Source: a virus
Taxonomy: Duplodnaviria; Caudoviricetes
Strand: one strand, 5' to 3'
Virus record (IMG/VR): IMGVR_UViG_3300028591_000082
DNA length: 64,000 bases
Shown piece by piece: positions 2,081 through 22,015 of this stretch. Within the stretch, counting starts at the first letter, position 1. Every line of letters starts with the position of its first letter. A program made the translations under genes and the position numbers. The notes under the pieces were generated by a model. It was not told where the DNA came from. It saw nothing but the letters and a program-made list of their open reading frames with translations, and did not search any database.

Positions 2081-2410
2081 TTAAATCTTAATATTATTTC
2101 TTGAAGATTGTTCAAGCTCTTTTAATATTTTAAAAGAACTTTTTCTTATATCGTCGCAATTATTCATTGGAAAATAACAATCTGCATAACAATTAACAAG
2201 TTTTATAATTAAAGTACATACAGGAATATCACATCTTCCTGCAAAGATTTCTCCTCTACCTGTTAACATAGTTTTTAATACACAATCAGAGCAAGGAATA
2301 TAATCATGTTCTAATTTTAATTCTCTACTTCTAGGAACTCTACTTATATATTTATTATATGATAAATATGATAATTGTCTTTTTGCTTCTTTCTTTTGTT
2401 CTGAATTCAT
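2081..2410 (-). CDS. Cys-rich small protein with C-terminal tag (RNNIKI)
   Basis: CxxC plus further Cys; tag ends in an ATT codon plus TAA with no overlapping downstream gene. Confidence 0.75.
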   Translation of the reverse strand: MNSEQKKEAKRQLSYLSYNKYISRVPRSRELKLEHDYIPCSDCVLKTMLTGRGEIFAGRCDIPVCTLIIKLVNCYADCYFPMNNCDDIRKSSFKILKELEQSSRNNIKI

Positions 2411-3095: not shown

Positions 3096-3365
3096 TTATT
3101 TTAAATCTAATATATCGTCAAAACTATATATAAAATAATATTTTACTTCTTCTAATATGTCTTTACAACGAATGTAACCAGATCCATCTTTTTGCTTAAT
3201 GTTCATTCCAGGATACATTCTGTTTAACAATTTAATGCAAGAATCAATTCTTAATATTTTCTTTAAAAATCTACAAGGACAATCAATACAATCAATATCA
3301 TCTTCATGTAATTCTGACAATTCATTTACTTTATTTACAATTAATGCACTAAAACTTCTTTCCAT
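3096..3365 (-). CDS. Cys-rich small protein (CIDCPC...C...C) lacking the C-terminal tag
   Basis: Same Cys spacing as the array proteins; ends DILDLK. Confidence 0.6.
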   Translation of the reverse strand: MERSFSALIVNKVNELSELHEDDIDCIDCPCRFLKKILRIDSCIKLLNRMYPGMNIKQKDGSGYIRCKDILEEVKYYFIYSFDDILDLK

Positions 3366-3981
3366 ACTTTTCTTCACAATCAACCAAAGCAAATAAAAGT
3401 TCTTTTGATATATTTAGTTTATCAAGAAGTTCCAAATTCTTTGGAATTAAAAACATACAATCTTTATCAAAACCAACTATTTTAATATCTACTTTTTTAC
3501 CATTTAGTAAATCTATAAATTTTTGATTTCCTTCTTTTTTATTATACAAAATAAGATCGCTGCAAGTTCTAAATTCTTCGTTATTAAGAACTGTTTTGTC
3601 AAACTTCTCGATAAACAAATCTGAATTTATTACAAATGCATTATTAAACATTGAAACAAATAAATTTGCAGCCTTTGAGATCAATTTATCAAAATCTTCT
3701 GTATCGTCTGGAAATATAGTAATAAGTGGTTCTACAGGAATTGATACAATTTTTCCATTACCTATAGACTTAATCCAAGATTTAATACATCTTTTTTTGT
3801 GTGGATATTTTTCAAAGTCATAACCTTCGTCAAAATGAAATAATATGTATACCATTTCATTTTCTTTTGTACTTTCAATTACTTCTTTAATAGACCCACA
3901 GCTCATTTCACCACTTTCAGGATCAATTATTGTAACAATTAAAAAATCCCTTAAGTATTCTAAATCTTTATCACTTACCAT
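3349..3981 (-). CDS. Hypothetical protein
   Basis: ORF; start moved to MVSDKD to avoid overlap with the upstream gene. Confidence 0.65.
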   Translation of the reverse strand: MVSDKDLEYLRDFLIVTIIDPESGEMSCGSIKEVIESTKENEMVYILFHFDEGYDFEKYPHKKRCIKSWIKSIGNGKIVSIPVEPLITIFPDDTEDFDKLISKAANLFVSMFNNAFVINSDLFIEKFDKTVLNNEEFRTCSDLILYNKKEGNQKFIDLLNGKKVDIKIVGFDKDCMFLIPKNLELLDKLNISKELLFALVDCEEKYGKKF

Positions 3982-6356: not shown

Positions 6357-6713
6357 TTATATTTTTATATTACGATCTGTTATTTTTATTTTTACAGGAA
6401 ATTTTTCAAAAAAAAGATCACATAACAAAGAATCATCTTCAACAAATTCTTCTATAAAATCTCGAAGAGTTCCACTCCAACCAATAAGTTTACATAAAGC
6501 ATAAGCTCTTTGAGCACAACAAGATATTGTACTTCTACTTGCATAACTAAAAAATTTTTCAAATTTTTTATTTTCGTGAAGAATAGCACGATTATCTGGT
6601 TCAAAAGGGCAATGATATCCATAGCAATTGTCAGTAAAACCTTCCCCTTCGCCAATTTCTATTTTATTTTTGATATATTTTAAGTTTTCTGATAATTGTT
6701 TTTCTAATTTCAT
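6357..6713 (-). CDS. Cys-rich tagged protein (ends DRNIKI)
   Basis: CxxxxCP...CC; C-terminal tag. Confidence 0.75.
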   Translation of the reverse strand: MKLEKQLSENLKYIKNKIEIGEGEGFTDNCYGYHCPFEPDNRAILHENKKFEKFFSYASRSTISCCAQRAYALCKLIGWSGTLRDFIEEFVEDDSLLCDLFFEKFPVKIKITDRNIKI

Positions 6714-7015
6714 ATTTTCGTATTTACCCTTGTTTTAACTTCTATATCATAAAACCATCTTGAAAACCTATCGCACCAAACTCCAGAACCTGGTTCGTGA
6801 ATTTCCTTTGGCAAATTTTCAATTTTAAAATAATCTAATATTTTTTCACAGTTAACTCCACAATCAAAAGCATTACTTATACCAATTTCTTTTCTGTAAA
6901 GACTCATTGATGTTTTTATTGGACAGTAATCACATTGTCCAAATCTTTTAGGATTTATTGTTTCTTTTATTTTATAAAAAATTTTTAATTTATTATATGG
7001 CATTCTTATTTTCAT
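6710..7015 (-). CDS. Cys-rich tagged protein (RVNTKI), paralogue of 7012-7326
   Basis: Shared FG.C..CPI, CG.NC..LDYF.I, GSG..C..FSRWF.D. Confidence 0.8.
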   Translation of the reverse strand: MKIRMPYNKLKIFYKIKETINPKRFGQCDYCPIKTSMSLYRKEIGISNAFDCGVNCEKILDYFKIENLPKEIHEPGSGVWCDRFSRWFYDIEVKTRVNTKI

Positions 7016-7326
7016 ATTTTTATATTATACCTTGATACAATTTTTAAATCACAAAACCATCTTGAGAATTCTTCACATGAAACACCATTGCCACTACCAT
7101 ATTTATGAATATGTTCAGGCAAAAGCCATCTAATGTTAAAATAATCTAATAATCTATCACAATTAAATCCACATCTTCTATTGTCAGATGTATTTGTCTC
7201 ATTTGGAAATTCTTCTTTTGCTATCGCTATAGGGCAACTGCAGCAATCACCAAAATAATCTGGATCACAAAAATTTACTATTTTATTAAATATTTTTACT
7301 TTTTTTGAAGTAAGTTTTATTTTCAT
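7012..7326 (-). CDS. Cys-rich tagged protein (RYNIKI)
   Basis: Paralogy to 6710-7015; ATGA overlap. Confidence 0.8.
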   Translation of the reverse strand: MKIKLTSKKVKIFNKIVNFCDPDYFGDCCSCPIAIAKEEFPNETNTSDNRRCGFNCDRLLDYFNIRWLLPEHIHKYGSGNGVSCEEFSRWFCDLKIVSRYNIKI

Positions 7327-7327
7327 T

Positions 7328-7534
7328 TTATTTCCCAAAAATCAAAGAAAGAACAAAAACCAATCCATATACAGATGTTTCAAGAACAAGAGCGTTGAAT
7401 GTCTTTTTGCATATATTCTTTCTTTCAAATGTATGTTCTGTATCGTGTTTTACTTTTGATTTTGATTGTACAAAGTTGTAAATAAGAGAAGCTGATTTTC
7501 CCATAAAAAGTACAAATGAAATATCTTTTATCAT
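7328..7534 (-). CDS. Small membrane protein
   Basis: Two hydrophobic segments; GGAGG SD; box A promoter upstream. Confidence 0.6.
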   Translation of the reverse strand: MIKDISFVLFMGKSASLIYNFVQSKSKVKHDTEHTFERKNICKKTFNALVLETSVYGLVFVLSLIFGK

Positions 7535-7594
7535 AATTTTTGCCTCCACATATAATTATATCACGAAAAATATATTTCAGCAGGGTGCAAATAA

Positions 7595-7903
7595 TTATAT
7601 TTTAATTTCTCTATTTGTTGTGATCATTGTTAAAATTTTTTTTGCTGAATCTAAGTTTCTACCACAAGTATCATTGTTTAAATAAAAATTGGTACGTAAT
7701 GATATAACATAATTAGTTAATGTTTGACAATTAGTATAATAATTTCCAGTTTTCTCTGTTCTTAATGGACATTGATCGCATGTACGACCACAAACATTAA
7801 TATACATATCTATAAATTCTATCATTTTTTTTGGACTAATCTTATATCTTTTTGAATAAAAATTTCTTATTCTAAGTGCTTCAATATTTTTGAATCTTTT
7901 CAT
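7595..7903 (-). CDS. Cys-rich tagged protein (REIKI)
   Basis: CDQCPL...C...C; tag followed by TAA. Confidence 0.75.
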   Translation of the reverse strand: MKRFKNIEALRIRNFYSKRYKISPKKMIEFIDMYINVCGRTCDQCPLRTEKTGNYYTNCQTLTNYVISLRTNFYLNNDTCGRNLDSAKKILTMITTNREIKI

Positions 7904-8235
7904 ATTTTTATATTCCTACTCTTAAGTCCAATGTTATATACCCAATTTTGAAAATTATCACAATCAACGCTGCCACGAATATATTTACACTGATATAGAT
8001 CCAAGTCAAAATAATGCATTATATCTATTGCTATATCAGAACAAGAATCAAAAATATCTACTTCTAATCTTATATTATTTATAAGATTATTTTCTGTGGC
8101 AATACCATATCTTCCTCTTAGTATACATACTGGGCATCCTTTGCAACTTTCATTTATTGTTTCTTTTTGCTCTTGTGGAGTTTTTATTCGAAACATATAT
8201 TTTTTTAACTCTTTAAATTCTTTAATATGTTTCAT
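7900..8235 (-). CDS. Cys-rich tagged protein (RNIKI)
   Basis: CKGCPVC...C...C. Confidence 0.75.
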   Translation of the reverse strand: MKHIKEFKELKKYMFRIKTPQEQKETINESCKGCPVCILRGRYGIATENNLINNIRLEVDIFDSCSDIAIDIMHYFDLDLYQCKYIRGSVDCDNFQNWVYNIGLKSRNIKI

Positions 8236-8489
8236 ATATTTATACTCCTACTTTTATTTAAAATATATTTTATTGCTTTTATATGGCTTCTACATCCATC
8301 TCTTCCTTCGTTAATTTTTCTCCAAATATCAAAACCACCTACTGTTTCTATATATCTTCCACAAGTAAGATGTAAACGATTATTTCTATCTGCACAAGCA
8401 CACATAATACATCCAGGATAACCTTTATTTCTAGAATGTTTGACGTACTCAACGGCTTTTTTAAAAGCAATTTTATCAATATTTTTCAT
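8232..8489 (-). CDS. Cys-rich tagged protein (RSINI)
   Basis: CIMCAC..NN...TC...GG...GC..HI.AIKY; related to 11566 and 11835. Confidence 0.75.
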   Translation of the reverse strand: MKNIDKIAFKKAVEYVKHSRNKGYPGCIMCACADRNNRLHLTCGRYIETVGGFDIWRKINEGRDGCRSHIKAIKYILNKSRSINI

Positions 8490-8755
8490 ATTTTTATATG
8501 CCTACCAAAATTGTTTACTATTTTGCAAATTATTGCTCTTCCTTCAGCACAACTTGTAAATTTTTTATCACCACCCATTGCTTTGTATATATCTGCACAA
8601 GAACCATGCATAGCATATTTCTCTCTTGGGAAGTCTGTTTTAAGTCTTTGCCATACACATTCTGCACAAGCAGTAACCTTTTCGTTTACTGTAACATTTT
8701 TATCGTATTTTATTATCCATTTGATATCTTTTAACAATTCTTTGTTTAAAGGCAT
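8486..8755 (-). CDS. Cys-rich tagged protein (RHIKI)
   Basis: CAEC...C...C. Confidence 0.75.
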   Translation of the reverse strand: MPLNKELLKDIKWIIKYDKNVTVNEKVTACAECVWQRLKTDFPREKYAMHGSCADIYKAMGGDKKFTSCAEGRAIICKIVNNFGRHIKI

Positions 8756-8783
8756 TTGCTAATCCTTCTTAATTATTTTTTTA

Positions 8784-9074
8784 TCATATTTTTATATCAC
8801 GTTTTGAATTATTGTCTAAAGCAAATTTTATTGCTACTATATGCTCGTCGCAACTAAGTTCATCTTCTTCAAAGCCAAGTCTTTCCCAAATATCTTCTCC
8901 TAAAACTTTTTCTATGCGTTCATAACAATATAAATTATCAGAATTATTTTGATGAGAGCTTGGGCAATTTTCACATTCGTCACAATCACTACTTTCATAA
9001 TCCAAAAATGTTATATAATGTAAAGTATCTTTAAATATTATTTCAGTTTGCTTATTTAGTTTTATTTTTTTCAT
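8784..9074 (-). CDS. Cys-rich tagged protein (RDIKI), paralogue of 9071-9328
   Basis: CENCP...C..IE.V.GE...EDE..C....AIK. Confidence 0.75.
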   Translation of the reverse strand: MKKIKLNKQTEIIFKDTLHYITFLDYESSDCDECENCPSSHQNNSDNLYCYERIEKVLGEDIWERLGFEEDELSCDEHIVAIKFALDNNSKRDIKI

Positions 9075-9328
9075 ATTTTGGCTGGTTTCCTATAATTTTC
9101 CAAAGTATATTTTATTGCTTTTAATCTATCACTACAGTTGTGCTCGTCTTCTCCTATTCCTATTTTTCTAAGAGATTCTCCAATTACTTCTTCAATAAAA
9201 ACACAACAGCCAAGATGAAGTGGATTATACTCAAAACTACAAGGACATTCAGTACAATTCCTTTCACCATATTTATGATATTCTAATGTTTTCTTAAAAA
9301 GTTCTATATAAGTTGAATTTAGTCTCAT
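9071..9328 (-). CDS. Cys-rich tagged protein (RKPAKI)
   Basis: CTECPC...CC...C. Confidence 0.75.
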   Translation of the reverse strand: MRLNSTYIELFKKTLEYHKYGERNCTECPCSFEYNPLHLGCCVFIEEVIGESLRKIGIGEDEHNCSDRLKAIKYTLENYRKPAKI

Positions 9329-9570
9329 ATTTTTGCTGGCTTCCTATGATTATAATCTTTTAAAGCTTTTTTAACTGATTCTAATCTTCTTTTGCATGAA
9401 TAAAAACCGAAACGATCTATATATTGTGGAATCACTCTAGTAAGAAAATCCATGCATCCTTCCCCACTTGGATTATTTGAATAACTAAGTGAACATATAC
9501 TACAGTCATGGCCTTGGTTTTCTTTTAATGCATTTTTTAAAGTTCTTATTTCTTCTTTGCTTAGTTTCAT
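9325..9570 (-). CDS. Cys-rich tagged protein (RKPAKI)
   Basis: CSIC...NN...GC...C. Confidence 0.75.
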   Translation of the reverse strand: MKLSKEEIRTLKNALKENQGHDCSICSLSYSNNPSGEGCMDFLTRVIPQYIDRFGFYSCKRRLESVKKALKDYNHRKPAKI

Positions 9571-9821
9571 ATTTTAGTTGCTCTTATTTTACTTTTTGTT
9601 TTATATATTATATCAGAAAAGCGTCTGACATCATCACAATTAAATAAATTAAACATTCGTTTTCCAGGAACAAATTTTGCAAACACTTCATTAAAATAAT
9701 CAATACAACCAATACCAATATCATTATTAGAAGAACTCATTGGGCATTCTTCACAAGCTGTAAAATCATTTATATATTTCATTTCAGAAAGTATTTTCAT
9801 TAATTTTCTGCTTGGTCTCAT
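9567..9821 (-). CDS. Cys-rich tagged protein (RATKI)
   Basis: CEECPM..NN...GC...C. Confidence 0.75.
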   Translation of the reverse strand: MRPSRKLMKILSEMKYINDFTACEECPMSSSNNDIGIGCIDYFNEVFAKFVPGKRMFNLFNCDDVRRFSDIIYKTKSKIRATKI

Positions 9822-10096
9822 ACTTTAATGTTCCTATATGATTTTTTTAATAATATATCTGTATAATTCCTAATTGTTAGACAATAACTTTCGTATTTTT
9901 TACTATTGTTAATAATCCATTGTTCAGAATTACTGCAAATTTCATGTAGATAAGTAAGACAAGAAATATTAAATCCACTATTAGTGGCATACAAAGGACA
10001 ATTGTCACAACCAATGTGCGTTCTTTTACAATCAAGAGAAAATCCTTTTGACAATATATTTTTTCTTAATGCATTTAATTTACTAATATCAATCAT
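9818..10096 (-). CDS. Cys-rich tagged protein (RNIKV)
   Basis: CDNCPL...C...C. Confidence 0.75.
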   Translation of the reverse strand: MIDISKLNALRKNILSKGFSLDCKRTHIGCDNCPLYATNSGFNISCLTYLHEICSNSEQWIINNSKKYESYCLTIRNYTDILLKKSYRNIKV

Positions 10097-10374
10097 ATTT
10101 TAATAATCCTAAAATTGGTAGGTAGCTGCTCCAAAAACCAACAATAAAACCTACTGCAATTAACGGAATTATCTATAATTGCTCTTGGCGGGTAATCCAT
10201 TTTTAATATGTCAAGCATTCTGTAAACTTCCATAGCACAACTTCCATTGCATATTTTTTTCCCAGTAATTTTTTTATAGATTTCCTTTGGACAAATATGA
10301 CATTCGTTGGCAATATCATTAGAGCGTGATATCATTGTTTCTTTTATTTTAAGAGCCAAGGTTGAATTTTTCAT
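10093..10374 (-). CDS. Cys-rich tagged protein (RIIKI)
   Basis: CHICP...C...C; start at ATGA overlap with 10371-10670. Confidence 0.75.
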   Translation of the reverse strand: MKNSTLALKIKETMISRSNDIANECHICPKEIYKKITGKKICNGSCAMEVYRMLDILKMDYPPRAIIDNSVNCSRFYCWFLEQLPTNFRIIKI

Positions 10375-10670
10375 GCTGGTATTTCCATTTCCTGATATTC
10401 CTTTCCAGCTTTCCAAGATTGATAGGTAGATACTTTCATTACACCTGAAGTATTATCAGTTAAAAAGCCTTCGCTGTTGTATTCACGATTATTGTCTTTG
10501 TGATATTCTTCATTAATACCGTCAAAGCCATCAAAGAAAGCGGCATTGATGTATGTCATATCTATTTCATCAAAGTTTTGAAACTCTTCGGAGTGTTCAC
10601 CATTATAATAATAGTCGTACCAGGCATCTCCCTTGTTATTATAAGCCTTCTTCATATCAGGAAACAACAT
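10371..10670 (-). CDS. Acidic hypothetical protein
   Basis: GGAGGTG SD; ORF. Confidence 0.7.
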   Translation of the reverse strand: MLFPDMKKAYNNKGDAWYDYYYNGEHSEEFQNFDEIDMTYINAAFFDGFDGINEEYHKDNNREYNSEGFLTDNTSGVMKVSTYQSWKAGKEYQEMEIPA

Positions 10671-10674
10671 AAGA

Positions 10675-10935
10675 CTACACCTCCTCTACTTCTAAGCAGT
10701 CTTCTTCAGCAAGCTTGTTAAATTCTTCTTCTGAGATTTCTTCAAGAATATAAGAGATGTGAAGTTCTTCTTCGTCTTCTTGTTCGTCGTCCCAATCAGC
10801 TTCTTCCATAGAGCGATCGTCTGCATGTTCGCAGCAGAAGTCGTCTACTGCGTTATAGTCCTTGTCAGACTTAATGAGATATTCGTTAGTATATCCACAG
10901 TAATTTGCATCTTCTTCTACTTTATAAAACTTCAT
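10675..10935 (-). CDS. Very acidic small protein (DNA-mimic candidate)
   Basis: GGAGG SD; box A promoter; long D/E runs. Confidence 0.7.
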   Translation of the reverse strand: MKFYKVEEDANYCGYTNEYLIKSDKDYNAVDDFCCEHADDRSMEEADWDDEQEDEEELHISYILEEISEEEFNKLAEEDCLEVEEV

Positions 10936-11021
10936 AATTTGCCTCCAGTTATTCCTCATATATATTATACAACAAAAAAAGCACCTTAGCAGGGTGCAAA
11001 AGTTTTAGGAATAATCAATAA

Positions 11022-11279
11022 CTATATCTTCACAGATTTTCTTTTTGACTTAAAATCCTCACATATTTGATAACAAGCATCTCTTACGTCACAGCAGCTA
11101 AACAAATGACCCGATGGTAAATATCCCTCAATTATTTCCTTACCAATCATATCTCGCAGGACAGTTAAGCAAGTTCTAAAATAAATTCTATCATTGAGTG
11201 GACACGTTTCACAATGCAAATCAGGAACTGTAGTTGTCATTTTTAACATTTTAATTATATCGGGTCTTATTTTTTTCAT
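11022..11279 (-). CDS. Cys-rich tagged protein (RKSVKI)
   Basis: CETCPL...C...CC; tag followed by TAG. Confidence 0.75.
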   Translation of the reverse strand: MKKIRPDIIKMLKMTTTVPDLHCETCPLNDRIYFRTCLTVLRDMIGKEIIEGYLPSGHLFSCCDVRDACYQICEDFKSKRKSVKI

Positions 11280-11569
11280 ATTTTTGTATTTCTTGAGAAT
11301 TTGTAATTTTTAACAAAATCATATACTTTTTGGTGTATAGTTGGGCAATGAGTGGTCATATCAATACCAAATATTCTCTGTATTTCACTGCATGGCTTTT
11401 CCCCACCAAGACAACTAATCATTGTATCTTTTTTCTTTCCAATACTTTCAAAGTATTTATGCAGTATACAAGTTTCTCGCATCAAAACCCCATAACCAGT
11501 TCTTCCAATATCTTCATTACAATTCTTTTGTATGCATTTGAATTTAGCTATCACATCATCTTTTTTCAT
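11276..11569 (-). CDS. Cys-rich tagged protein (RNTKI), CILHK subfamily
   Basis: CILHK...C.GG..C...C..IH shared with 12092 and 12382. Confidence 0.8.
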   Translation of the reverse strand: MKKDDVIAKFKCIQKNCNEDIGRTGYGVLMRETCILHKYFESIGKKKDTMISCLGGEKPCSEIQRIFGIDMTTHCPTIHQKVYDFVKNYKFSRNTKI

Positions 11570-11838
11570 ATTTTACATCCAAGCCTGTATTTAGAATGAT
11601 TAACCATATATTTAATTGCAATTACCTGATCTCTACAACCAGTACAGTCTCCCCCAGATTCTTCATATATTTTATCTCCTCCAATCTTCATTATAAATAA
11701 ATAGCATCCAACTTTTGCTCTATTATTTTTTTTAGACATAGGACATTTTTCACATATATGCCCTTCACTTTGATGCTCTTCTACATATTTTAAAGCACTT
11801 TTAAGCGTCATTAAATCTTTTTTACCAATCTTTTTCAT
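11566..11838 (-). CDS. Cys-rich tagged protein (RLGCKI)
   Basis: CEKCPMS..NNR...C..FI...GG; paralogue of 11835. Confidence 0.8.
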   Translation of the reverse strand: MKKIGKKDLMTLKSALKYVEEHQSEGHICEKCPMSKKNNRAKVGCYLFIMKIGGDKIYEESGGDCTGCRDQVIAIKYMVNHSKYRLGCKI

Positions 11839-12095
11839 ATCTTAATACCTCTAGTAGAGTTAGAATATTTAATCATATATTCAATTGCCATATGCTGAGA
11901 ATTATACCCCTTCATTGCCGCTTCATCGCGTATATTCTTTCCTCCCAAGAACTTTATAAATTCTGGGCAAGTCAATCCCACTCTATTATTAGTACTGCTC
12001 ATAGGACAAGTTCTACAATCAGCAAACCCCTTTCCCTCCCAAAGTCTTTTAGCAGTTTTCATAGTAGCCAGATCACTTTTACTAATCCTTTTCAT
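11835..12095 (-). CDS. Cys-rich tagged protein (RGIKI)
   Basis: CRTCPMS..NNR...C. Confidence 0.8.
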   Translation of the reverse strand: MKRISKSDLATMKTAKRLWEGKGFADCRTCPMSSTNNRVGLTCPEFIKFLGGKNIRDEAAMKGYNSQHMAIEYMIKYSNSTRGIKI

Positions 12096-12385
12096 ATTTT
12101 AATACCCCTTAAATGGCAAATTCTATATATTTCTTTATGTATATCAGCACACATAATATATCTATTAAGTCCAAACTCTTCTACTATTTTACCACATATT
12201 TTCCCACCAAGACATTGACTTCCGTGATATTCTTGTTGTAAAGCTTGTTCTAAGAATTTATGCAATATACAAGATTTTCGTATAATAAACCCATTATCAT
12301 CTATTTTAATATTAGGAGAGCATTTTATGCTTTTAAGTTTATTAAACATCTGCCTATAGTTAAGTATTTGTTGATACCCATTCAT
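12092..12385 (-). CDS. Cys-rich tagged protein (RGIKI), CILHK subfamily
   Basis: CILHK...CLGGKIC...MCADIHK. Confidence 0.8.
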   Translation of the reverse strand: MNGYQQILNYRQMFNKLKSIKCSPNIKIDDNGFIIRKSCILHKFLEQALQQEYHGSQCLGGKICGKIVEEFGLNRYIMCADIHKEIYRICHLRGIKI

Positions 12386-12663
12386 ATCTTAGTCTCCCTA
12401 ATACCTCTTTTTATAATATTATATACATTCTTATGTATATCAGCACACATATTAGTTGCTTTTAATCCAAGCATTTTCTGTATGCCTTCACATATATATC
12501 CTCCAACACAATTAGCTCCATAAAACCTTAATGGTGGGTTTACACATAATAAGTACTTATGCAGTATACAGTTATGCCGCCAGTTAACGCCACAAGTATT
12601 AAGATTAGGATTACACTCTTTTCTTACTTTACAAAGTAAGCGTATCATTTCATTATTAGCCAT
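12382..12663 (-). CDS. Cys-rich tagged protein (RETKI), CILHK subfamily
   Basis: CILHK...CVGGYIC...MCADIHK. Confidence 0.8.
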   Translation of the reverse strand: MANNEMIRLLCKVRKECNPNLNTCGVNWRHNCILHKYLLCVNPPLRFYGANCVGGYICEGIQKMLGLKATNMCADIHKNVYNIIKRGIRETKI

Positions 12664-12670
12664 ATTTCCT

Positions 12671-12919
12671 TTATATCCTACAAAATCTATTAATTTTTAT
12701 ATTCATAAATGCATCATAAAACTCTATACAACCACATCCACCACTATACTTTATACCAAGCCTTTTACATAACTGTTCCCGGTGTTCTGCACACCCAATG
12801 CCCTTAAGTCTTCTTATAGATAAATTACTATAAATGGTAATAGGACAGCACCTACAAGCACCAGGAGCATTGTTCTTAGCTAATTCTGCTTGTATTTTCC
12901 TTATCATTCTCTTATCCAT
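12671..12919 (-). CDS. Cys-rich tagged protein (RFCRI)
   Basis: CRCCPI...C...CGC. Confidence 0.75.
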   Translation of the reverse strand: MDKRMIRKIQAELAKNNAPGACRCCPITIYSNLSIRRLKGIGCAEHREQLCKRLGIKYSGGCGCIEFYDAFMNIKINRFCRI

Positions 12920-12975: not shown

Positions 12976-13004
12976 ATTATACCATAAATCGCCCATAAAA
13001 TCAA
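12976..13004 (-). promoter_or_regulatory. Sigma70-type promoter heading the 12919-11022 array
   Basis: TTGATT-17-TATAAT on the minus strand. Confidence 0.6.
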
Positions 13005-13376: not shown

Positions 13377-13730
13377 ATGCCTAGAATAAGTGATAGATAT
13401 AGAGTAATAGAAAGCGATTGGACTCCATATGTAACTGTAACACATAATGATACTACAGCTGATGCAACTACAGCTACTAGTACTGGTACATATTGGACAT
13501 TTAATGATGATGTTAATGATAATCGTGTAACAGTTAATTTACATGATTATTGGTATGAGGTACCTAATTCAAATGGATACATTACTTTGGATCCAAGTCT
13601 AAGCTTTAATAGTAATTCATTATGGTCTGATAATAGATCATATGTTAGTTGGGATCCAGGATTAAGTTTTGAAGAAGCTTACAAAAGATGGTTGAAAAGA
13701 CGGAATAAGAAGAGAGTTATAAGGATATAG
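13377..13730 (+). CDS. Cys-free hypothetical protein with C-terminal tag (KRVIRI)
   Basis: Thr/Trp/Asn-rich ORF directly after the promoter. Confidence 0.7.
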   Translation: MPRISDRYRVIESDWTPYVTVTHNDTTADATTATSTGTYWTFNDDVNDNRVTVNLHDYWYEVPNSNGYITLDPSLSFNSNSLWSDNRSYVSWDPGLSFEEAYKRWLKRRNKKRVIRI

Positions 13731-13732: not shown

Positions 13733-13912
13733 ATGGAAGAAGAACTTTTAGAATCGGTTAGACGATTACTAGATAGTGTTTATAGGGATAATATCAGCCG
13801 CAGAATATTTAGAGAATACTCTATGGAAGTGTCGGGAGATACTATTTATTATGTTAGACCATTCTTTGGAAAGAATATAAAACACAAGTGCAGGAAGAAT
13901 TGCAAGATATAA
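13733..13912 (+). CDS. 59-aa tagged protein (MEEELLESV...RKNCKI), below ORF-track cutoff
   Basis: Manual translation; AAGGA SD in the end of the previous gene; followed by a hairpin and T-run. Confidence 0.6.
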   Translation: MEEELLESVRRLLDSVYRDNISRRIFREYSMEVSGDTIYYVRPFFGKNIKHKCRKNCKI

Positions 13913-14444: not shown

Positions 14445-14512
14445 CCTAAGTAAACTTAGGATTTTGATTAAATTTGTTGTTCTTACGAACTTTTTTGAGG
14501 AGCAACGCTCCC
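14445..14512 (-). promoter_or_regulatory. Conserved 5' leader of the KOW-like paralogues (also 16276-16327 and 20923-20975)
   Basis: Identical CCTAAG-TTTA-CTTAGG hairpin abutting the SD in all three; 5' hairpin GGAGC-GTT-GCTCC vs GGGTC-GTT-GACCC covaries. Confidence 0.75.
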
Positions 14513-14564
14513 TTACTCTTATATTATACACCGCAAATCCTAACAGAACAGGGTGCATATTTTT

Positions 14565-14960
14565 TTGGTCTTGCGACCGTTTGCAGCTTCGAAACCTCTC
14601 TGAGAAGGGGGCAGAACCCAGCCCACAAATTGGGCTTCAATCTCATAAAAGATTTCTGACTGCGACATTCCTTGCAGGAGTTGCACCGTGCATTTCTTGC
14701 CTGAGAAGCAATCGTCCTAGCTGTTAGACGAAAGGAACATAAAAGGTGCGAAGGTTTCGCATTCGCTTGCGGAGCTCACCTTGACCCGATGGGGAGTGGG
14801 GTTTTGTTGTCGCACAATCACTAAGGCGTTGCTCTTTTTTCGAATGGATGTAAGCAATAGCCACAAATTCGCAAAAGTAGGTAAGGGTTAGATCACGCAC
14901 ACTATCTAAAGTGCATCTTCTAGTGGGAGAGGGAATTTCTTCGTATTCCTATCGTTCCTT
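14565..14960 (-). ncRNA. ORF-less box A transcription unit: structured leader, tRNA-like gene, 3' hairpins
   Basis: Promoter 14969-15003; 5' GTAAGG pairs with CCTTAC; ends GGTC-GCAA-GACC. Confidence 0.55.
14666..14738 (-). tRNA. tRNA-Glu(CTC)-like gene with atypical T arm
   Basis: GTTCCTT/AAGGAAT acceptor, Glu-type D arm TC-GTCT...AGGAC, TTGC-TT-CTC-AG-GCAA anticodon arm; T loop TGCAACT with a bulged stem; no encoded CCA. Confidence 0.65.
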
Positions 14961-15011
14961 ACTCTTATATTATATCACGAAACTTTTAATTCAGCAGGGT
15001 GCAGAATTTTT

Positions 15012-15105
15012 TGGTCTCGCGAAAGAACGGGGGATTTTTGTGAGGTGAACTTTGTAACCGATCTGCTCATTTGGAAAAGCAGAACGATCAATCTCCCGTT
15101 CCTTA
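15012..15105 (-). ncRNA. About 95-nt ORF-less RNA closed by a terminal stem
   Basis: Promoter 15113-15147; 5' AAGGAACGGGAGATT pairs with 3' AATCCCCGTTCTTT; internal TCTGCT/AGCAGA hairpin. Confidence 0.55.
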
Positions 15106-15154
15106 TACTAATATTATACACCGTAAACCTGAAGTCAGCAGGGTGCATAATTTT

Positions 15155-15267
15155 TAGGGTTCGGCAGCAAATTCTTCTTGGACATGCGAGCCATAAAACT
15201 CTATACCAAGGTTCCGCCACTCTTATATCTCTTTCGAGGGAAGTTCGACCTTCCTTTGCTGCCTTAC
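15155..15267 (-). ncRNA. About 110-nt ORF-less RNA closed by a terminal stem
   Basis: Promoter 15274-15308; GGCAGCAAA pairs with TTTGCTGCC; internal GGAAG/CTTCC and CTC-GAAA-GAG hairpins. Confidence 0.5.
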
Positions 15268-15327
15268 ACTAATATTATACCACGCAAAAGTGAACTGGGC
15301 AGGGTGTAAAATTTTTTGGTTTTTTTA

Positions 15328-15465
15328 TTGACTTAAAATCGATCTTAAGTTATACTGTGAGTACACTTGAATAAATTCGGATTTTCCGAATATTTAAGTA
15401 CAAACATATACAACACCAAAATCCGACTTTTTCGCGAGGTTGATCTTCGCGAGGAAGTCGGTGCT
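15328..15465 (+). ncRNA. Candidate sigma70-driven plus-strand small RNA
   Basis: TTGACT(15328)-17-TATACT(15351); two long hairpins, ATTCGGA/TCCGAAT and CCGACTT..TCGCGA/TCGCGA..AAGTCGG. Confidence 0.4.
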
Positions 15466-15553
15466 GCTGCCTATAGTGTAATGATAGGAACAACGGTTTT
15501 GTCAAGGTGGGCAGGGTGCAAAAGTGTGAGTACATGAGTTTTTTCAAATACAT

Positions 15554-15749
15554 GTCGACTTTTTACAAAAAGTCGACTATTTACATAGTGTAGGCTTCGA
15601 AGCCGTTTTGGTTTCAAAATCAGACATATGTATAGTATACTAGAATACTACTATACATATGTAGTGTAATGATTTGAATAACTATATTATATCATAAGGT
15701 TTGGTTAAGCAGGGTGCAATACAAATACACTATACATATGTATAGTGTA
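15554..15749. repeat. Cluster of DNA palindromes
   Basis: GTCGACTTTTT-AC-AAAAAGTCGAC at 15554-15577; ACATATGTATAGTA...TACTATACATATGT at 15624-15662; perfect 24-bp TACACTATACATATGTATAGTGTA at 15726-15749. Confidence 0.8.
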
Positions 15750-15841
15750 ATGATAGGAGCCCCGCAATAAAAAAGGCTAGGTGGCTTTCGCCGACCTAGT
15801 CGATTTATTTTAGGAGTGTCTGCCCTTTCGGGCAGGGTGCA

Positions 15842-16258
15842 TTACTGTGCGTCTACTCCGACAACCTTACCGAAGTTGATGTAGCGAACACCTACTGTGC
15901 CATTCGGTGTGTTATCTTCGGTGTAGCGAACAGTAATTGTTGCTTCGCCGATTTTTTCGATAGGGAACTTGTATTCCTTTGCGAACTTTCCACTACCACA
16001 GATAACTGTAGCAATGTCGCCGACTTTTGCGTTTTTGAGCAAAACCTTTCCGTTTTCAACGGCTTCGGCATTTTTTGCTTCGCGGGCAGCCTTCTGCTGT
16101 TCTGCGAACATTTCCTTTCCCGATTTCTTCAACTGACGGAGAACTTCCATAGTTGCGTCGAGTTCGTCAAGATTTATGAAATCCTTTGAGATTCCGATTG
16201 TTGCGAGTTTTTCTGTCTGAGCAGCCAAAAGTGATGGAGAAAAAGTTTTGTTAGCCAT
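15842..16258 (-). CDS. Coiled-coil + KOW/SH3-like protein, paralogue 2 of 3
   Basis: C-terminal about 60 aa nearly identical to 14049 and 20484; same leader. Confidence 0.8.
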   Translation of the reverse strand: MANKTFSPSLLAAQTEKLATIGISKDFINLDELDATMEVLRQLKKSGKEMFAEQQKAAREAKNAEAVENGKVLLKNAKVGDIATVICGSGKFAKEYKFPIEKIGEATITVRYTEDNTPNGTVGVRYINFGKVVGVDAQ

Positions 16259-16664
16259 AATGGTAATTTCCTTTGCCTAAGTAAACTTAGGACTTTTATT
16301 AGATTTTTTGTTCGGGTCAACGACCCTTGATGTCTTTATTCTACAACCCGAACTCTGACAGAGCAGGGTGCAGATTTTTGTTTTTTCTGCAAGGCAGAAA
16401 CTTTTTATTTTTCTGCCCTACGCCTATATTATAACATTTTGAACTTGGTTTAGCAGGGTGCAAATTGAATTATCTTTTGCAATTCACTCACCCTTCCTTC
16501 CCTAGTAATGTCAAAGAACTGTAGGCTCTTGTTCGTGCCTTACTCCTATATTATAGCAAGTGAAATTGATTTGAGCAGGGTGCAAATTGTCTACAGGATC
16601 TTTTTGATCTGAGCAGGGTGCAGCGGCTGCGGGGGTGTAATGATATGAACAACGAAAGGAAATC

Positions 16665-17011
16665 CCCTAGGGGCACTTAGACCCACTAGGGAACTTCTAA
16701 AATCACTTCCTATGGTGAAGGCATGTCTGCGACTAGGAAACCCTCTACATCATTTTATAAGTTTTTCTCACCGAAAACTAGAGAACCCGTAGTGAAACTT
16801 AAAAGGGGCTCGCAATTGTTTTATTAGTTTCCTATAGTTGAACTCTCAAAGCAACGAGCGTGCAAAGTAAAACTGCATGGATAATTTATGGATAATCACT
16901 ATGCTCAAAACCCACTTTACCCTAAAGTGTAAGCTGACACCAATCTTCCCTGTGTCAGTAGGGTAAGGACTCGAACCACTTTTATTAGTGGGGTACCTCA
17001 TCGTTCCTTAC
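16665..17011 (-). ncRNA. About 340-nt ORF-less structured RNA
   Basis: Promoter 17018-17052; starts GTAAGGAACGAT like the 14960 unit; GGTTCGAGTCC T-loop-like motif; stems CTGACAC/GTGTCAG, CACTTTA/TAAAGTG, GCTCG/CGAGC; terminal CCCTAG/CTAGGG hairpin. Confidence 0.55.
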
Positions 17012-17125
17012 ACCATTATTATAGCAAGGTTATTCCAATTAAGCAGGGTGCAATTCTACTAATGTGTTATGATTTGAATAACGAAAAAAAGCCCACTATA
17101 CGAAAGTATAGTGGGCAGAGGTGAT

Positions 17126-17710
17126 TTATACTATTGTGTATGAAGTCCAATCATTGTTTTTCCTTATTTCTTCAATAGGAATAACTGTGAAACTGTAGTC
17201 AGGCCCCTCATCTTCGACATTTTCATCTTCATCTTCGCCATAGCCCATACTGTCATACCAAGATTGAGCACAGTCGCCAATGTAATCCAATATTTCTTTT
17301 TTAGTATATTCTGCAGGAAAAGCATAGGATTCAATTTCGTCGTGACAATCGTATGAGGAACTATAAGTTGCCTCGATATACTGAAGTTTATTGTCAAGAT
17401 ATTTTCGCAATTCCTTTTCATGTTCTTTTGTGAACTTGAGCATAAACTGAACAACTTTGACAAGAGCAGGAGTAAAAGAATCAAATTGATAATTCTTAAA
17501 CTTTTCAAGGAACTTATCAACAAACCCTGCTCGCATACTTGAATAATTACAATGTTCCAAGCCCTCGACCAATTCATCGTATTTTTTGCCAAAACTGATA
17601 TAAGTGTTTAAATCCTGAACTTCACGCTCAAATTGAGCACAACCGATTCTGTCAGCAAATACAATATCTATACCACAAACATCTGAAACATACTTTGTTA
17701 TTTCTTTCAT
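17126..17710 (-). CDS. Hypothetical protein with acidic C-terminal domain
   Basis: Box A promoter, GAGGTG SD, followed by a GCCCACTATAC hairpin with T-run. Confidence 0.8.
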   Translation of the reverse strand: MKEITKYVSDVCGIDIVFADRIGCAQFEREVQDLNTYISFGKKYDELVEGLEHCNYSSMRAGFVDKFLEKFKNYQFDSFTPALVKVVQFMLKFTKEHEKELRKYLDNKLQYIEATYSSSYDCHDEIESYAFPAEYTKKEILDYIGDCAQSWYDSMGYGEDEDENVEDEGPDYSFTVIPIEEIRKNNDWTSYTIV

Positions 17711-17767
17711 ATCATCACCTCACGCTTTTATTGTAACCCACTCGGCAGAGCCGAGCAGGGTGCAGAT

Positions 17768-18058
17768 TTAACATTCACGCACTAATCGATCTTCGGCTTT
17801 ATATTCCAACTGATCGATTTGAGCCTGCGTTAATTCTACATTGTACTTTGTTTCGTACAGGGTGCAGAAATCCTCAAAACACTCTTGAAAAGAATAGTAT
17901 CTTTCCTTTTTCAAAAATGTTTTTTTGGTAATATCACTGTAAACACCTATACAATAAATGCCTTTATACATATAAAGCATAACTGTTTGCATACCTATAA
18001 CAAAACGGAAATCGACACTGTCATCGTTGACGATAATTTCTTTTGAAGCCTTCCACAT
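17768..18058 (-). CDS. Hypothetical cassette protein (starts MWKASKE)
   Basis: Box A promoter, GAGGTG SD. Confidence 0.75.
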   Translation of the reverse strand: MWKASKEIIVNDDSVDFRFVIGMQTVMLYMYKGIYCIGVYSDITKKTFLKKERYYSFQECFEDFCTLYETKYNVELTQAQIDQLEYKAEDRLVREC

Positions 18059-18178
18059 CTTTATCACCTCGCACCAACAGTATAACAAGATCAATCTGAT
18101 TGAGCAGGGTGCAACACTGCCACTGTGTTATAATTTGAACACCACTTTTTCAAGTGGTAGGGGCTTTCGCCCCTAGAC

Positions 18179-18583
18179 TTAGGCAACCAAGGCTACCTGC
18201 AACCTACTTGCTACATAGGCTACAGCCCACCTAGAAGATTCGCCATTTTGGTTTTTACATACGATAGGGTATGTTCGGGCACGATTATTCCAGTCAAGAA
18301 TACGCCAGGTATTCCCCTTTTCATCACGCCATTTTAAGCCGATGACTACTTTAGGAACATCACGATAATAACACCATAAAGCGTCATGAATTTTGGCATT
18401 TGCGAAATCGTCGATTTTAAGAGAGCCGTCGGTATTTTTTTCGACAGTTTCAATAGTAATCTTCAAGCCAGTATCTGAATAAGTAATACGAGATCTAGAC
18501 ATCTCATTATTAAACTCAGCCAATAAACCACTAAGCATAGAATCAAGTCTAGCATGGAAAACTTTACAAGTTGATTTATCCAT
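18179..18583 (-). CDS. Hypothetical cassette protein, ends ALVA
   Basis: Box A promoter, GAGGTG SD. Confidence 0.8.
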   Translation of the reverse strand: MDKSTCKVFHARLDSMLSGLLAEFNNEMSRSRITYSDTGLKITIETVEKNTDGSLKIDDFANAKIHDALWCYYRDVPKVVIGLKWRDEKGNTWRILDWNNRARTYPIVCKNQNGESSRWAVAYVASRLQVALVA

Positions 18584-18710
18584 TTTATCACCTCACATCT
18601 TTATTATAATCTGCTCGGACTAACCGAGCAGGGTGCAGCACCACAACTGTGTTGTAATTTGAATACCGCAAATAAGAGCACCACCCTTTCGGGTGGTGTA
18701 GAGTGTGATG

Positions 18711-18992
18711 TTATGCGGTCATTAAAGATACTTCTCCGAGTGGAGAATGCACCCGTCTATGGCAGTTCGCACAAAGGCACACAAAGTTGTTTATATCGTT
18801 TTTACCACTTACTGCAAGTGGAACGATATGGTGGAGTTCAATGACATATTTGTCTCTTTCTCCACAAATCTGACATTCATACCCAAGACGCTCTTTAATT
18901 CGTCTAATGGTTGCCATTTTAGGTCTATCTCGTTTTATCGGAAAGTGATGGCAAATACGCTCGTACTCGCTCATTTTGTGTCCTTTCTTCAT
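18711..18992 (-). CDS. Small HNH endonuclease
   Basis: CQICG...ELHHIVP...G.N..NNFVCLCANCHRRVH. Confidence 0.85.
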   Translation of the reverse strand: MKKGHKMSEYERICHHFPIKRDRPKMATIRRIKERLGYECQICGERDKYVIELHHIVPLAVSGKNDINNFVCLCANCHRRVHSPLGEVSLMTA

Positions 18993-19066
18993 AAACTTGC
19001 CCCCTTAGTTTATTATGTCTTATGCCCTTATTATACTCGGCTAGCACTAGCCGAGCAGGGTGCAGA

Positions 19067-19198
19067 TTAGAACAGAGCCGAATGTCTTTTCTTAATCCAC
19101 GAATGTATTTCTGTTACTGCAAGATAGATTGTAAGCACTACAAGAGCAGGTACTGCCACGAGTGTTTCTACTGAAAACTGATTAAGCCACTGTATCAT
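19067..19198 (-). CDS. 43-aa single-pass membrane peptide
   Basis: Manual translation MIQWLNQFSVETLVAVPALVVLTIYLAV...; box A promoter and GAGGTG SD. Confidence 0.65.
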   Translation of the reverse strand: MIQWLNQFSVETLVAVPALVVLTIYLAVTEIHSWIKKRHSALF

Positions 19199-19253
19199 TT
19201 TATCACCTCACGACTATAGTATACCCCATTCGCACTAGGCGAACAGGGTGCAA

Positions 19254-19427
19254 TTAACAGATACTACTCCAAGAAGTATAGTAAGAACAAAAGCCAAGAG
19301 CATTTAATCCCATACAGATTTCTCTTGCATCCCAACGAGCCAAATCTTTTGCAACAAGTCTTTCAACACCATTCTCTCTGATGTAGACATTACTAAGAAG
19401 TTGCCAATGAAGTTTCTCTTTGTACAT
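19254..19427 (-). CDS. 57-aa cassette protein (MYKEKLHWQ...)
   Basis: Manual translation; box A promoter and AAGGAGG SD. Confidence 0.65.
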   Translation of the reverse strand: MYKEKLHWQLLSNVYIRENGVERLVAKDLARWDAREICMGLNALGFCSYYTSWSSIC

Positions 19428-19548
19428 ACTGTCCTCCTTACGCCTTTATTATAGCAATCATTGATTGATTGAGCAGGGTGCAACGCTGCAGCAATGTAGT
19501 AATACCAACCCCGCCCTTTCGGGTGGTGGGGCTTTCGCCCCTAGCGGA

Positions 19549-20007
19549 TTATTCAGTAGCGTATTTGATAAACTCATCATAGAGATTATGCTTTGCAAGG
19601 AAATCAAAAAGATAACAACTACCAACATAATCTTGTAAGGCTTCGTCGATTGCATTTTTTATACTATCGTTGCCATTTTCAATAAGTGTTTCAAGTTCTT
19701 TTTGAGTAAAATCTGTAATACTTGCAGAAACATGAACATTATCATCGATTGCTTCAACTAAAGCCCTTAAATCTTCATTGTTGTCAAATTCAACATCGTC
19801 CAAGAAAGTAATACCATCAATAGATTGTACAAGTTCAATGGCTAATCTTTCGCCATAGTCATTTGCATACTCTCCAAGATACCCGTAGTACTGACCACAG
19901 TCATCGCAAAAATACAATTTTTTGGCAATATCTAATTCATGGTCTTTAATCTGTTGCTTTTCCCAATCTTCAAGACCACAGAATGCTTTTGTTGTTTTTG
20001 TTTTCAT
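19549..20007 (-). CDS. Acidic cassette protein with CxxC
   Basis: Box A promoter, GAGGTG SD. Confidence 0.8.
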   Translation of the reverse strand: MKTKTTKAFCGLEDWEKQQIKDHELDIAKKLYFCDDCGQYYGYLGEYANDYGERLAIELVQSIDGITFLDDVEFDNNEDLRALVEAIDDNVHVSASITDFTQKELETLIENGNDSIKNAIDEALQDYVGSCYLFDFLAKHNLYDEFIKYATE

Positions 20008-20099
20008 ATCATCACCTCACGCTTTTATTATAACAAAGTTTGACTGATTAAACAGGGTGCAACGCTCACCCCGATGTAGTAATACCAACACCGCAAATA

Positions 20100-20350
20100 A
20101 AAAACCCTAGGGGTTATCCCCTAGGGGTAACTACCTACCTATACCATAGGTATTTCGGTAGGCAATCGGTAGACTCTTGCTAACATTAGAGCACGAGAAA
20201 TGCGAGTGGATTAAAGTGGCTACCCGTTCACTCGATTGTTTTCTTTAAGCCCTCGACCAACCTTGAATACGAGGGGCTATTGTCGTGCAAGCAGACGGAG
20301 GGTTTGTTACGCCATAGCCCACAACTACGTGAGGCTTTCGCCTCATTACA
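20100..20350 (-). ncRNA. About 250-nt ORF-less multi-hairpin RNA
   Basis: Promoter 20356-20390; GAGGC-GAAA-GCCTC, GGGCTAT/ATAGCCC, CCTCG/CGAGG, CGAGTG/CACTCG and CTACC/GGTAG stems; terminal CCCTAGGGG hairpin plus T-run. Confidence 0.55.
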
Positions 20351-20483
20351 TCTGTATTATACTATACTCCCATAATGAGAGCAGGGTGCAACACTACTTG
20401 GTGTAGTAATACCAACCCCGAGGTCGGCTCGGCAGAAAACCCGAGAGCCGACTTCTATTCCCACCCTTTCGGGTGGGGGCAGA

Positions 20484-21382: not shown

Positions 21383-21392
21383 ACGCAACTCC

Positions 21393-21925: not shown

Positions 21926-22015
21926 TTTATCACCTCACACCCATAGTATAACAAGGCTTGACTGATTGAGCAGGGTGCAAGTCGGCAACTGTGTTGTAAT
22001 TCGAACACCGAAAAT

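Follow-up and report, generated by a model that had tools for sequence, protein, structure and literature searches.

Large phages carry tens of kilobases of small early ORFans, most of which have no assigned role. Among T4-type phages, RB49 and phi1 hold hyperplastic early regions in which promoter-early stem-loop (PeSL) cassettes drive modular shuffling, and whole genes are inserted, deleted or replaced between relatives (Arbiol et al. 2010, PMC2839356). These regions represent the closest described framework for the locus considered here, an array of small genes on the minus strand (positions 6357–12919) of a 64,000-nucleotide stretch of DNA (hereafter, the window), which is part of an uncultured T4-like phage of approximately 223 kb. 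Both share the T4-like background, the small, non-essential ORFans and a repeated unit composed of a promoter and a stem-loop (PMC2839356), the latter being putative in the array. The array codes for 20 paralogues of one previously undescribed protein family, with a Cys cluster that would hold a metal ion and a common C-terminal tail.

According to the open reading frame (ORF) listing, the array comprises 23 ORFs, 20 of which align as one paralogous family of proteins of 81–118 residues. Three Cys columns of this alignment are invariant and the fourth Cys is present in 19 members, and the coordinates and junction sequences reveal ATGA stop/start overlaps at 16 junctions. The three ORFs outside the family code for a membrane mini-protein (7328–7534) and two Asp/Glu-rich proteins (10371–10670 and 10675–10959). 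In an all-vs-all BLASTP comparison, the closest paralogues are 6710/7012 (44% identity, E 2e-28), followed by 11566/11835 (E 4e-16), 12092/12382 (E 2e-15, 42% identity) and 8784/9071 (E 7e-14). The 8232/11566/11835 group spans E values from 1e-9 to 1e-16, with 8232 matching 11566 at E 7e-14, and 11276 matches 12382 and 12092 at E 4e-13 and 4e-12, respectively; most of these groups are joined by weaker links. When leave-one-out profiles were scored, each against all 303 ORFs of the window, 16 of the 20 members were recovered at E<1e-3 and three were marginal (E 0.0045–0.035). The remaining one, m10093 (members are named as in Table 1), has a weak profile (E 0.68), and its link to the family is a pairwise BLAST match to m6710 only (E 3e-6).

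An earlier note on this DNA had described an ATGA-chained array of 20 mini-proteins, expanded by duplication and divided into four subfamilies. The chain and its 20 members are recovered in the alignment and at the junctions, all four subfamilies are borne out by BLASTP, and the expansion by duplication is backed by the alignment, the BLASTP links, the leave-one-out profiles and the tree described below. The Cys spacing that it proposed has to be amended: CxxC is present in 16 of the 20 members (CxxCP in 13), with variants such as C-x4-CP in m6357 and C-x14-16-C, followed by ILHK, in the 11276/12092/12382 subfamily, in which one more Cys, the fifth, and two His residues are also invariant. Its view that nothing but the Cys pattern and the tail is retained has to be abandoned, as the subfamilies keep motifs of their own: an S-x2-NN-R loop and A-I-K-Y in one of them, and CILHKY and C-x-GG in another. 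In m11835, Tyr takes the place of the fourth Cys and a conserved His follows four positions further on, and the same swap is found in its relatives P0010, P0020 and P0021.

The Pfam-A, PHROGs v4 and NCBIfam 20 scans of all 20 members returned single-member chance hits only (E 0.002–0.3), and no family of these databases was matched by more than one array member; the family profile gave only chance rows (E ≥ 0.04) against PDB sequences. None of these scans tied the members to a described family, and no described equivalent was found in the literature. Among 1.84 billion representative proteins, the family profile retrieved 28 at E≤0.001, one of them a repeat artefact and the others either the window's own proteins or proteins of 80–110 residues with the same tail. 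Those matches that could be placed sit on arrays of small genes, located on the related contigs L001 (6.8 kb long), L003 (from a contig of 108 kb), L004 and L006–L009, and a further contig of 25 kb (ENA) holds about 40 coupled small genes. In IMG/VR, neither a flank gene nor m11566 retrieved a relative, the alignment of the family having diverged too far to serve as a search pattern, and the array DNA had no blastn match among 50,697 phage records. So few matches in 1.84 billion proteins, and none in IMG/VR, point to a lineage-restricted family, limited to this phage and, apparently, a few uncultured relatives. The window also codes for a PolIII-alpha-type polymerase, a DnaB-like helicase, a primase, a UvsX-like recombinase, a T4-like portal, TerL and ThyX, with the identity of the phage taken from the polymerase, UvsX, portal and TerL; the best matches of the portal in the phage collection, at about 30% identity, are Microcystis and Flavobacterium myophages and a 595-kb uncultured phage. 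The G+C content is approximately 26–33% over 1–14 kb.

Weak matches to the family profile are also found elsewhere in the window (2081–2410, 3096–3392, 27608–27883, 24963–25337 and 25356–25736). Three of them on the minus strand, 2081–2410, 3096–3392 and 27608–27883, have E values from 8e-7 to 4e-4 within the window, and two of these three hold the tail; thus, the family exceeds the 20 array genes. A second array at 24963–28784 (minus strand) holds about ten small Cys proteins with an N-terminal helix, a CxxC, two further single Cys and an R-x-I-x-I end, a layout shared with the main array, although a conserved linker of about 25 nt (TAA-ACCCTGCCAGGAGTAAT-ATG) stands between its genes in place of ATGA overlaps. 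In a profile–profile comparison with the main array, the four Cys and the tail align, but the match is weak (probability 16.5%, E 0.0015).

AlphaFold models were obtained for two members of different subfamilies, each with an alignment of its relatives. That of m11566 (predicted local distance difference test, pLDDT, 86.9; predicted template modelling score, pTM, 0.79) contains helices at residues 6–21, 45–53, 57–61 and 68–80, and a disordered tail at 87–90, and that of m6710 (pLDDT 84.9, pTM 0.77) has its helices at 7–18, 32–44, 52–62 and 81–90, and its disordered tail at 98–101. In both of them, the CxxC motif follows the N-terminal helix, and the third and fourth Cys are each located at the start of a helix; m6710 holds an additional helix at the position of the NNR loop of m11566. 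This common order of helices and Cys supports a single predicted four-helix fold with insertions, as had been supposed beforehand, for the two subfamilies modelled. Foldseek returned nothing at E ≤ 0.001 for both models against PDB and for m11566 against BFVD, and the best Z scores of a wide structural search (4.5 and 3.4) were below the values typical of this tool even for unmatched models. Consequently, no known fold can be assigned to the predicted structures, although a missing match is no proof of novelty. A C4 zinc ribbon or treble clef does not fit the site, since there is only one CxxC and the other ligands are single Cys, located 12–20 and 20–30 residues further on, and the two models are made up of helices, any beta structure being limited to isolated bridge residues.

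A metal-clamped scaffold is plausible for these mini-proteins, because none of the Cys ligand columns varies between orthologues (they are identical in all closest-relative alignments at ≥85% identity) and the Cys-to-Tyr change in one clade is accompanied by a His. WhiB-like (Wbl) proteins are small helical [4Fe-4S] proteins with a C-x14-22-C-x2-C-x5-C pattern, some actinophages carry Wbl genes, and both Wbl proteins and zinc-associated (ZAS) anti-sigma domains act by binding a host transcription protein. The array family resembles them in being small (about 80–120 residues) and helical, with a putative four-ligand metal site. Neither the Wbl nor the ZAS fold figures among the 50 best rows of the wide structural search, an absence that speaks neither for nor against such a relationship. 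In another alternative, the Cys cluster carries an iron–sulfur cluster, the proteins being redox or oxygen/NO sensors or electron carriers, analogous in function to Wbl proteins, which is favored by the four Cys, including a CxxC followed by Pro, and by the size and helical content. It is a very unlikely alternative, as none of the 20 members matches Pfam Whib (PF02467) or any other Fe–S family in Pfam, the Cys order and spacing differ from those of Wbl (CxxC first, followed by two distant Cys), one clade has Tyr/His instead of the fourth Cys, and there is no rationale for more than twenty redox paralogues in an early region.

The second hallmark of the family is its C-terminal tail, R-x-phi-K-I. 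The last two residues are K-I in 17 of the 20 members, and N-I, K-V or R-I in the others, a shared ending that is far beyond chance, and an Arg is present in all members, 3–5 residues before the K-I. The tail differs from that of the closest relative in 4 of 20 comparisons, and its last four residues are disordered in both AlphaFold models. The codons of this tail are not used evenly. AGG is a rare codon, which represents 9.7% of the Arg codons in the long ORFs of the window, but it encodes the tail Arg in 12 of the 15 coupled members vs. none of the five uncoupled ones (Fisher p=0.0036; binomial against 9.7%, p=2e-10). Among all 38 tailed ORFs, AGG is found in 13 of 17 coupled vs. 3 of 21 uncoupled (p=0.0002). 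The uncoupled members (m6357, m8784, m7595, m11022 and m12671) keep the tail Arg as CGT or AGA. The terminal Ile codons vary among ATA, ATT and ATC, with ATA in 12 of 15 uncoupled tails vs. a usage of 49%.

A simpler origin of the tail was rejected. A mere Shine–Dalgarno sequence plus the start of the next gene does not account for it, since the tail stays on uncoupled and isolated genes of both strands, with CGT or AGA and with ATT or ATC; moreover, ATGA requires a codon ending in A, and not Ile. The AGG bias at coupled tails, together with the preservation of Arg through other codons at uncoupled ones, suggests dual coding, by which the tail would be a peptide motif whose Arg codon has been recruited as a weak Shine–Dalgarno element where reinitiation is needed. 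With its stop/start overlaps and a putative ribosome-binding element inside the upstream gene, the array has the organization expected from a translationally coupled operon. The tail is also held by proteins without the Cys motif, on the plus strand too (13377–13730 and 13733–13912), and among core genes of the minus strand (41092–41322, 48054–48236, 58943–59461 and 59465–59860).

This distribution has a bearing on a further alternative, in which the tail is a degradation or addressing tag, so that the early mini-proteins are removed or routed together, perhaps by a ClpP-like protease of the phage, or act as decoys that flood the protease. The peptide-level motif, in the form R-x-phi-[KR]-I, is found on 28 of 137 ORFs of the window, with different folds (42 of 137 end in Ile), it is disordered in the two AlphaFold models, and the C-terminus of MuA, RRKKAI, is listed as a ClpX C-terminal degron (PMC8138137, Table 1). 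Like the array tail, RRKKAI is an exposed tail with basic residues followed by a short hydrophobic end in Ile (PMC8138137), and the window codes for a ClpP-family protease (51324–52043; Pfam CLP_protease, E 9e-12; phrog_1827 “ATP-dependent protease”, E 7e-51), whose catalytic Ser and His motifs align. However, the likeness to RRKKAI is loose, the array motif being R-x-phi-[KR]-I and partly conserved as a translation-coupling signal: both the choice of AGG and the excess of ATA in uncoupled tails are nucleotide-level features. Moreover, the ClpP-like gene also matches head-maturation protease families (E 3e-23) and may encode a prohead protease, and no unfoldase or adaptor was found, all of which makes the tag decidedly improbable. 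Directly downstream of the ClpP-family gene, on the same minus strand, lies a GroES-like gene (50953–51324; phrog_3188, E 2e-5); the two genes could form a proteostasis pair, or a prohead protease and a capsid chaperone.

Regarding transcription, a candidate sigma-70-type promoter precedes the first gene of the array (Table 1), and a repeated box, TTGCACCCTG, is strongly enriched, with 42 copies in the window vs. 1.7 expected, almost all of them on the gene strand. Three copies are located in internal or terminal gaps of the array. That at 10999–10960 lies in a hairpin with a T-run, followed by TATAAT, and those at 7590–7550 and 6103–6060 lie 24 nt before a TG-A-TATAAT; the two internal units read TTGCACCCTG...TGATATAAT. 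These copies at the gaps argue for a division of the array into three predicted cassettes, 12919–11022, 10959–7595 and 7549–6122, within the hyperplastic early region of the phage, and a repeated putative promoter with a stem-loop flanking small ORFs is the layout of PeSL-type promoter cassettes. The box itself may represent a phage-specific promoter class or an activator site. Its 24-nt distance upstream of the TATAAT-like −10 element is too long for a −35 element, and its sites on the minus strand include those of the region 14500–24600 and those at 2062, 5355, 6094, 7581 and 10990.

The evolutionary history of the array was examined through its relatives. Two short contigs of close relatives, L007 and L008, were used to estimate the ratio of non-synonymous to synonymous substitution rates (dN/dS; Table 1). 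Pooled over six family genes, 32 synonymous and 74 non-synonymous changes give a dS of 0.106, a dN of 0.053 and an omega of 0.50, which is significantly below 1 (p=0.002) and higher than that of the embedded membrane gene (0.09). The pooled value below 1 argues that the family genes, as judged from these alignments, are real and fast-evolving; gene-wide positive selection is not shown. The diversifying selection that the earlier note had proposed thus reduces to an elevated, but not positive, rate. The same value led to the rejection of chance ORFs. The broader possibility that the array ORFs are non-functional, being either chance frames or decaying duplicates in AT-rich DNA, could be suggested by the absence of annotation and by a G+C content of about 27%, which favors long open frames, but it is barely credible in view of the intact orthologues in several independent metagenomes, the dN/dS, the invariant Cys columns, the two confident AlphaFold models and the ordered start/stop coupling.

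In the tree, about 14 of the 20 window paralogues pair with a recovered close orthologue on a short branch, long branches part the paralogue lineages, and a recent within-genome pair is absent. The longest direct nucleotide repeat in the array is 81 nt at 73%. In L007 and L008, where the proteins are 85–99% identical, gene order and spacing are as in the window. The distant relatives L001, L003, L004 and L009 keep the anchors at 55–78% (m12671 at 64%, m11022 at 78%, the membrane gene at 60–62% and the flank genes at 55–74%), with different members between them, and L001 holds one truncated CILHKY-type gene in place of five window genes. The deep paralogue branches, the conserved order in close relatives and the differing member sets in distant ones indicate that the array most probably arose by old birth-and-death evolution rather than by recent amplification. 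Poxvirus genomic accordions, such as the K3L amplification reported by Elde et al. (2012), consist of recent, near-identical copies whose number varies between close strains. The array shares with them a small, presumably host-directed viral gene multiplied in tandem, but its paralogues are at most 44% identical, no long repeats are present, and relatives at about 90% identity keep the order; accordingly, a genomic accordion was rejected, and the label “accordion-like” used in the earlier note is corrected to old birth-and-death evolution at conserved junctions. At 8756–8786 (minus strand), the ATGA of m8784 opens a four-codon ORF (ATG ATA AAA AAA TAA), followed by a 28-nt gap that is also present in L007, and this gap is likely the scar of a lost array member. 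The protein encoded at 7328–7534, with two hydrophobic segments and no family match, is found inside the array in all the relatives seen (L001 4794–5000, L003 1071–1277, L008 111–317 and L009 379–585, at 60–99% identity).

The turnover of members also bears on the alternative that the paralogues build one hetero-oligomer, in which coupling would provide the stoichiometry and the tails would dock on neighbors. The 16 tight ATGA-coupled junctions would suit it, as would the adjacency of an NNR-type and a CILHKY-type gene, which is kept on L006. An obligate multi-subunit structure is hard to reconcile, however, with member sets that differ strongly between relatives, and the tail is also present on unrelated proteins outside the arrays, so that this alternative is highly improbable. 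A complex prediction for the conserved neighbors m11566 and m11276 gave a score of 0.00, which is no answer and speaks neither for nor against binding.

Taken as a whole, the best explanation is a metal-clamped, early, translationally coupled and host-directed family with a shared tail, a reading whose chances are put slightly below even. According to this model, the Cys cluster would hold one structural metal ion, most likely Zn, and this clamp would let the surface of a very small helical domain diverge without loss of its folding. The array would be transcribed early by the host RNA polymerase, and termination–reinitiation, for which the rare AGG codon would serve as a weak Shine–Dalgarno element, would yield roughly equal amounts of the products. 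These mini-proteins would then function as early effectors directed against the host, in takeover or counter-defence, and the conserved loop peculiar to each subfamily would probably recognize a separate target, either a host protein or a nucleic acid. The exposed R-x-phi-K-I C-terminus would be a short linear motif that other small early proteins of the phage also carry, read by one common partner. Finally, old tandem duplications would have been followed by gain and loss of whole genes at conserved junctions and cassette boundaries. As for the function alone, host-directed early effectors fit best, tentatively and with rather less than full balance of probability in their favor, because of the early-cassette context, the lineage restriction, the rapid protein evolution and the turnover of members; the Asp/Glu-rich ORFs inside the array are compatible with it.

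Several observations weigh against this model. Functional annotation was found for none of the 20 members, and the gene-wide dN/dS below 1 means that an arms race is not demonstrated. Promoter-like matches are, in total, no commoner than in shuffled sequence, the calls being consensus matches. The AGG codons stand 7–14 nt from the ATG, vs. 5–7 nt at the free-standing genes of the phage, and their ribosome-binding role rests on codon statistics only. In addition, most members have a high isoelectric point (pI), which suits nucleic-acid binding no less than protein binding.

This last point leads to an alternative in which the mini-proteins are metal-clamped nucleic-acid binders, either phage regulators of transcription or translation, or proteins that coat or remodel DNA or RNA of the host or the phage, with paralogues that differ in sequence specificity rather than in the host protein targeted. 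The pI is above 9 in 15 of the 20 members, and 17 have a pI of 8.2–9.8 and a net charge of +2 to +11. Subfamily loops such as S-x2-NN-R adjoin the Cys knuckle, and the weak top structural rows include the DNA-binding helical domains of Rex, TetR and Reb1 (Z 3.5–4.1). These rows are within noise, though, three members are neutral or acidic (m8784 has a pI of 4.6), and no helix-turn-helix, zinc-ribbon or similar family emerged from the Pfam, PHROGs and NCBIfam scans. Nucleic-acid binding is unlikely, while still retaining a real share of the probability.

A more speculative reading would regard the family as a natural library built upon a metal-clamped four-helix scaffold of a new kind. In it, R-x-phi-K-I would be a portable tag, also present on some 30 further small early proteins with different folds, and read by a Clp-type machine or another hub (the candidates being the phage ClpP-like protease and a host unfoldase), so that early effectors would be routed or destroyed together, and the same codons would serve as the ribosome-binding signal for the next gene. 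Such a scenario is a long shot, slightly less probable even than the tag by itself.

Table 1. Predicted genes and sites of the array, listed from the head promoter to the last family gene (aa, residues or amino acid identity; L and P numbers, contigs and proteins of relatives)
Feature	Position	Strand	Description	Relative, aa identity, dN/dS
Head promoter (candidate)	12976..13004	-	TTGATT, 17 nt, TG-n-TATAAT; sigma-70 type, extended -10; 10/12 consensus match; 57 nt upstream of first gene	
m12671	12671..12919	-	82 aa, CRCCP, tail NRFCRI; opens cassette 1; uncoupled, 7-nt gap to next gene; leave-one-out E 4.5e-5	L001, 64%, 0.45
m12382	12382..12663	-	93 aa, C-x14-C-ILHKY subfamily, ATGA-coupled	
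m12092	12092..12385	-	97 aa, CILHK subfamily, ATGA-coupled; 42% to m12382	
m11835	11835..12095	-	86 aa, CPMS-NNR subfamily; Tyr for 4th Cys + His	P0010, 92%
m11566	11566..11838	-	90 aa, CPMS-NNR subfamily; AlphaFold-modelled	
m11276	11276..11569	-	97 aa, CILHKY subfamily	L006, 58%, there also directly after an NNR-type gene
m11022	11022..11279	-	85 aa, CETCP; last gene of cassette 1	L001/L002, 78%, 0.29
Cassette boundary	10960..11021	-	TTGCACCCTG box in hairpin + T-run (terminator-like, 10997-10981), then TATAAT; repeat family D2	
Non-family Asp/Glu-rich ORF	10675..10959	-	94 aa; first gene of cassette 2; no Pfam or PHROG match	
Non-family Asp/Glu/Tyr-rich ORF	10371..10670	-	99 aa, no Cys; no Pfam or PHROG match	
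m10093	10093..10374	-	93 aa from ATG at 10374, CHICP	P0024, 72%
m9818	9818..10096	-	92 aa, tail NIKV	
m9567	9567..9821	-	84 aa	
m9325	9325..9570	-	81 aa, CSICS	P0015, 93%
m9071	9071..9328	-	85 aa; leave-one-out E 3e-13	
m8784	8784..9074	-	96 aa, acidic, pI 4.6	L007, 86%, 0.75
m8486	8486..8755	-	89 aa, CAECV	L007, 91%, 0.68
m8232	8232..8489	-	85 aa, CIMCA, NNR subfamily	L007, 85%, 0.50
m7900	7900..8235	-	111 aa, long subfamily	P0017, 97%
m7595	7595..7903	-	102 aa, long N-terminal helix; closes cassette 2	P0029, 91%
Cassette boundary	7550..7594	-	TTGCACCCTG box, TG-A-TATAAT 24 nt downstream (PeSL-like promoter unit); repeat family D2	
Non-family hydrophobic mini-protein (membrane gene)	7328..7534	-	68 aa, two segments; strongly conserved	L008, 99%, 0.09
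m7012	7012..7326	-	104 aa from ATG at 7326; 44% to m6710	L008 (P0011), 93% (93-94%), 0.48
m6710	6710..7015	-	101 aa; AlphaFold-modelled	L008, 86%, 0.54
m6357	6357..6713	-	118 aa, C-x4-CP; last family gene; tail Arg = CGT, no overlap with next gene	L008, 92%, 0.30

Besides the family members, the two adjacent Asp/Glu-rich proteins at 10371–10670 and 10675–10959 have a composition reminiscent of DNA-mimic anti-restriction proteins. Other genes of the window encode additional predicted functions. The gene at 40290–41156 (minus strand), located in the replication gene block, codes for a protein with a microbial-type poly(ADP-ribose) glycohydrolase catalytic domain (PF10021, E 2e-33), which may reverse ADP-ribosylation. 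In the product of 48917–49420 (minus strand), the 50 N-terminal residues match endonuclease VII, HNH and Lar-like zinc modules in PHROGs (E 1e-8 to 1e-7).

Given how many small early ORFans large phages hold, the array represents a tractable case, since it offers at least 20 natural variants of a tiny, confidently modelled domain, with a defined ligand set, subfamily loops and a shared disordered tail. If its members bind host factors, they would provide both a ready-made panel for finding what the phage must switch off in its host and a compact natural scaffold for binder engineering. Similarly, the tail is a clean and testable case of dual coding, in which a peptide motif is kept and its Arg codon is AGG only where the downstream gene would have to be re-initiated.

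In comparison with the PeSL regions of RB49 and phi1, the cargo is of a different kind: instead of unrelated single ORFans, one ATGA-chained family of 20 members is distributed over three cassettes. The repeated box is also different, being TTGCACCCTG placed 24 nt before the putative −10 element. Within that framework, what appears to be new in this phage is the family itself, its confidently predicted fold without a detectable structural relative, the paralogous cargo carried over three consecutive cassettes and the dual-coded tail.

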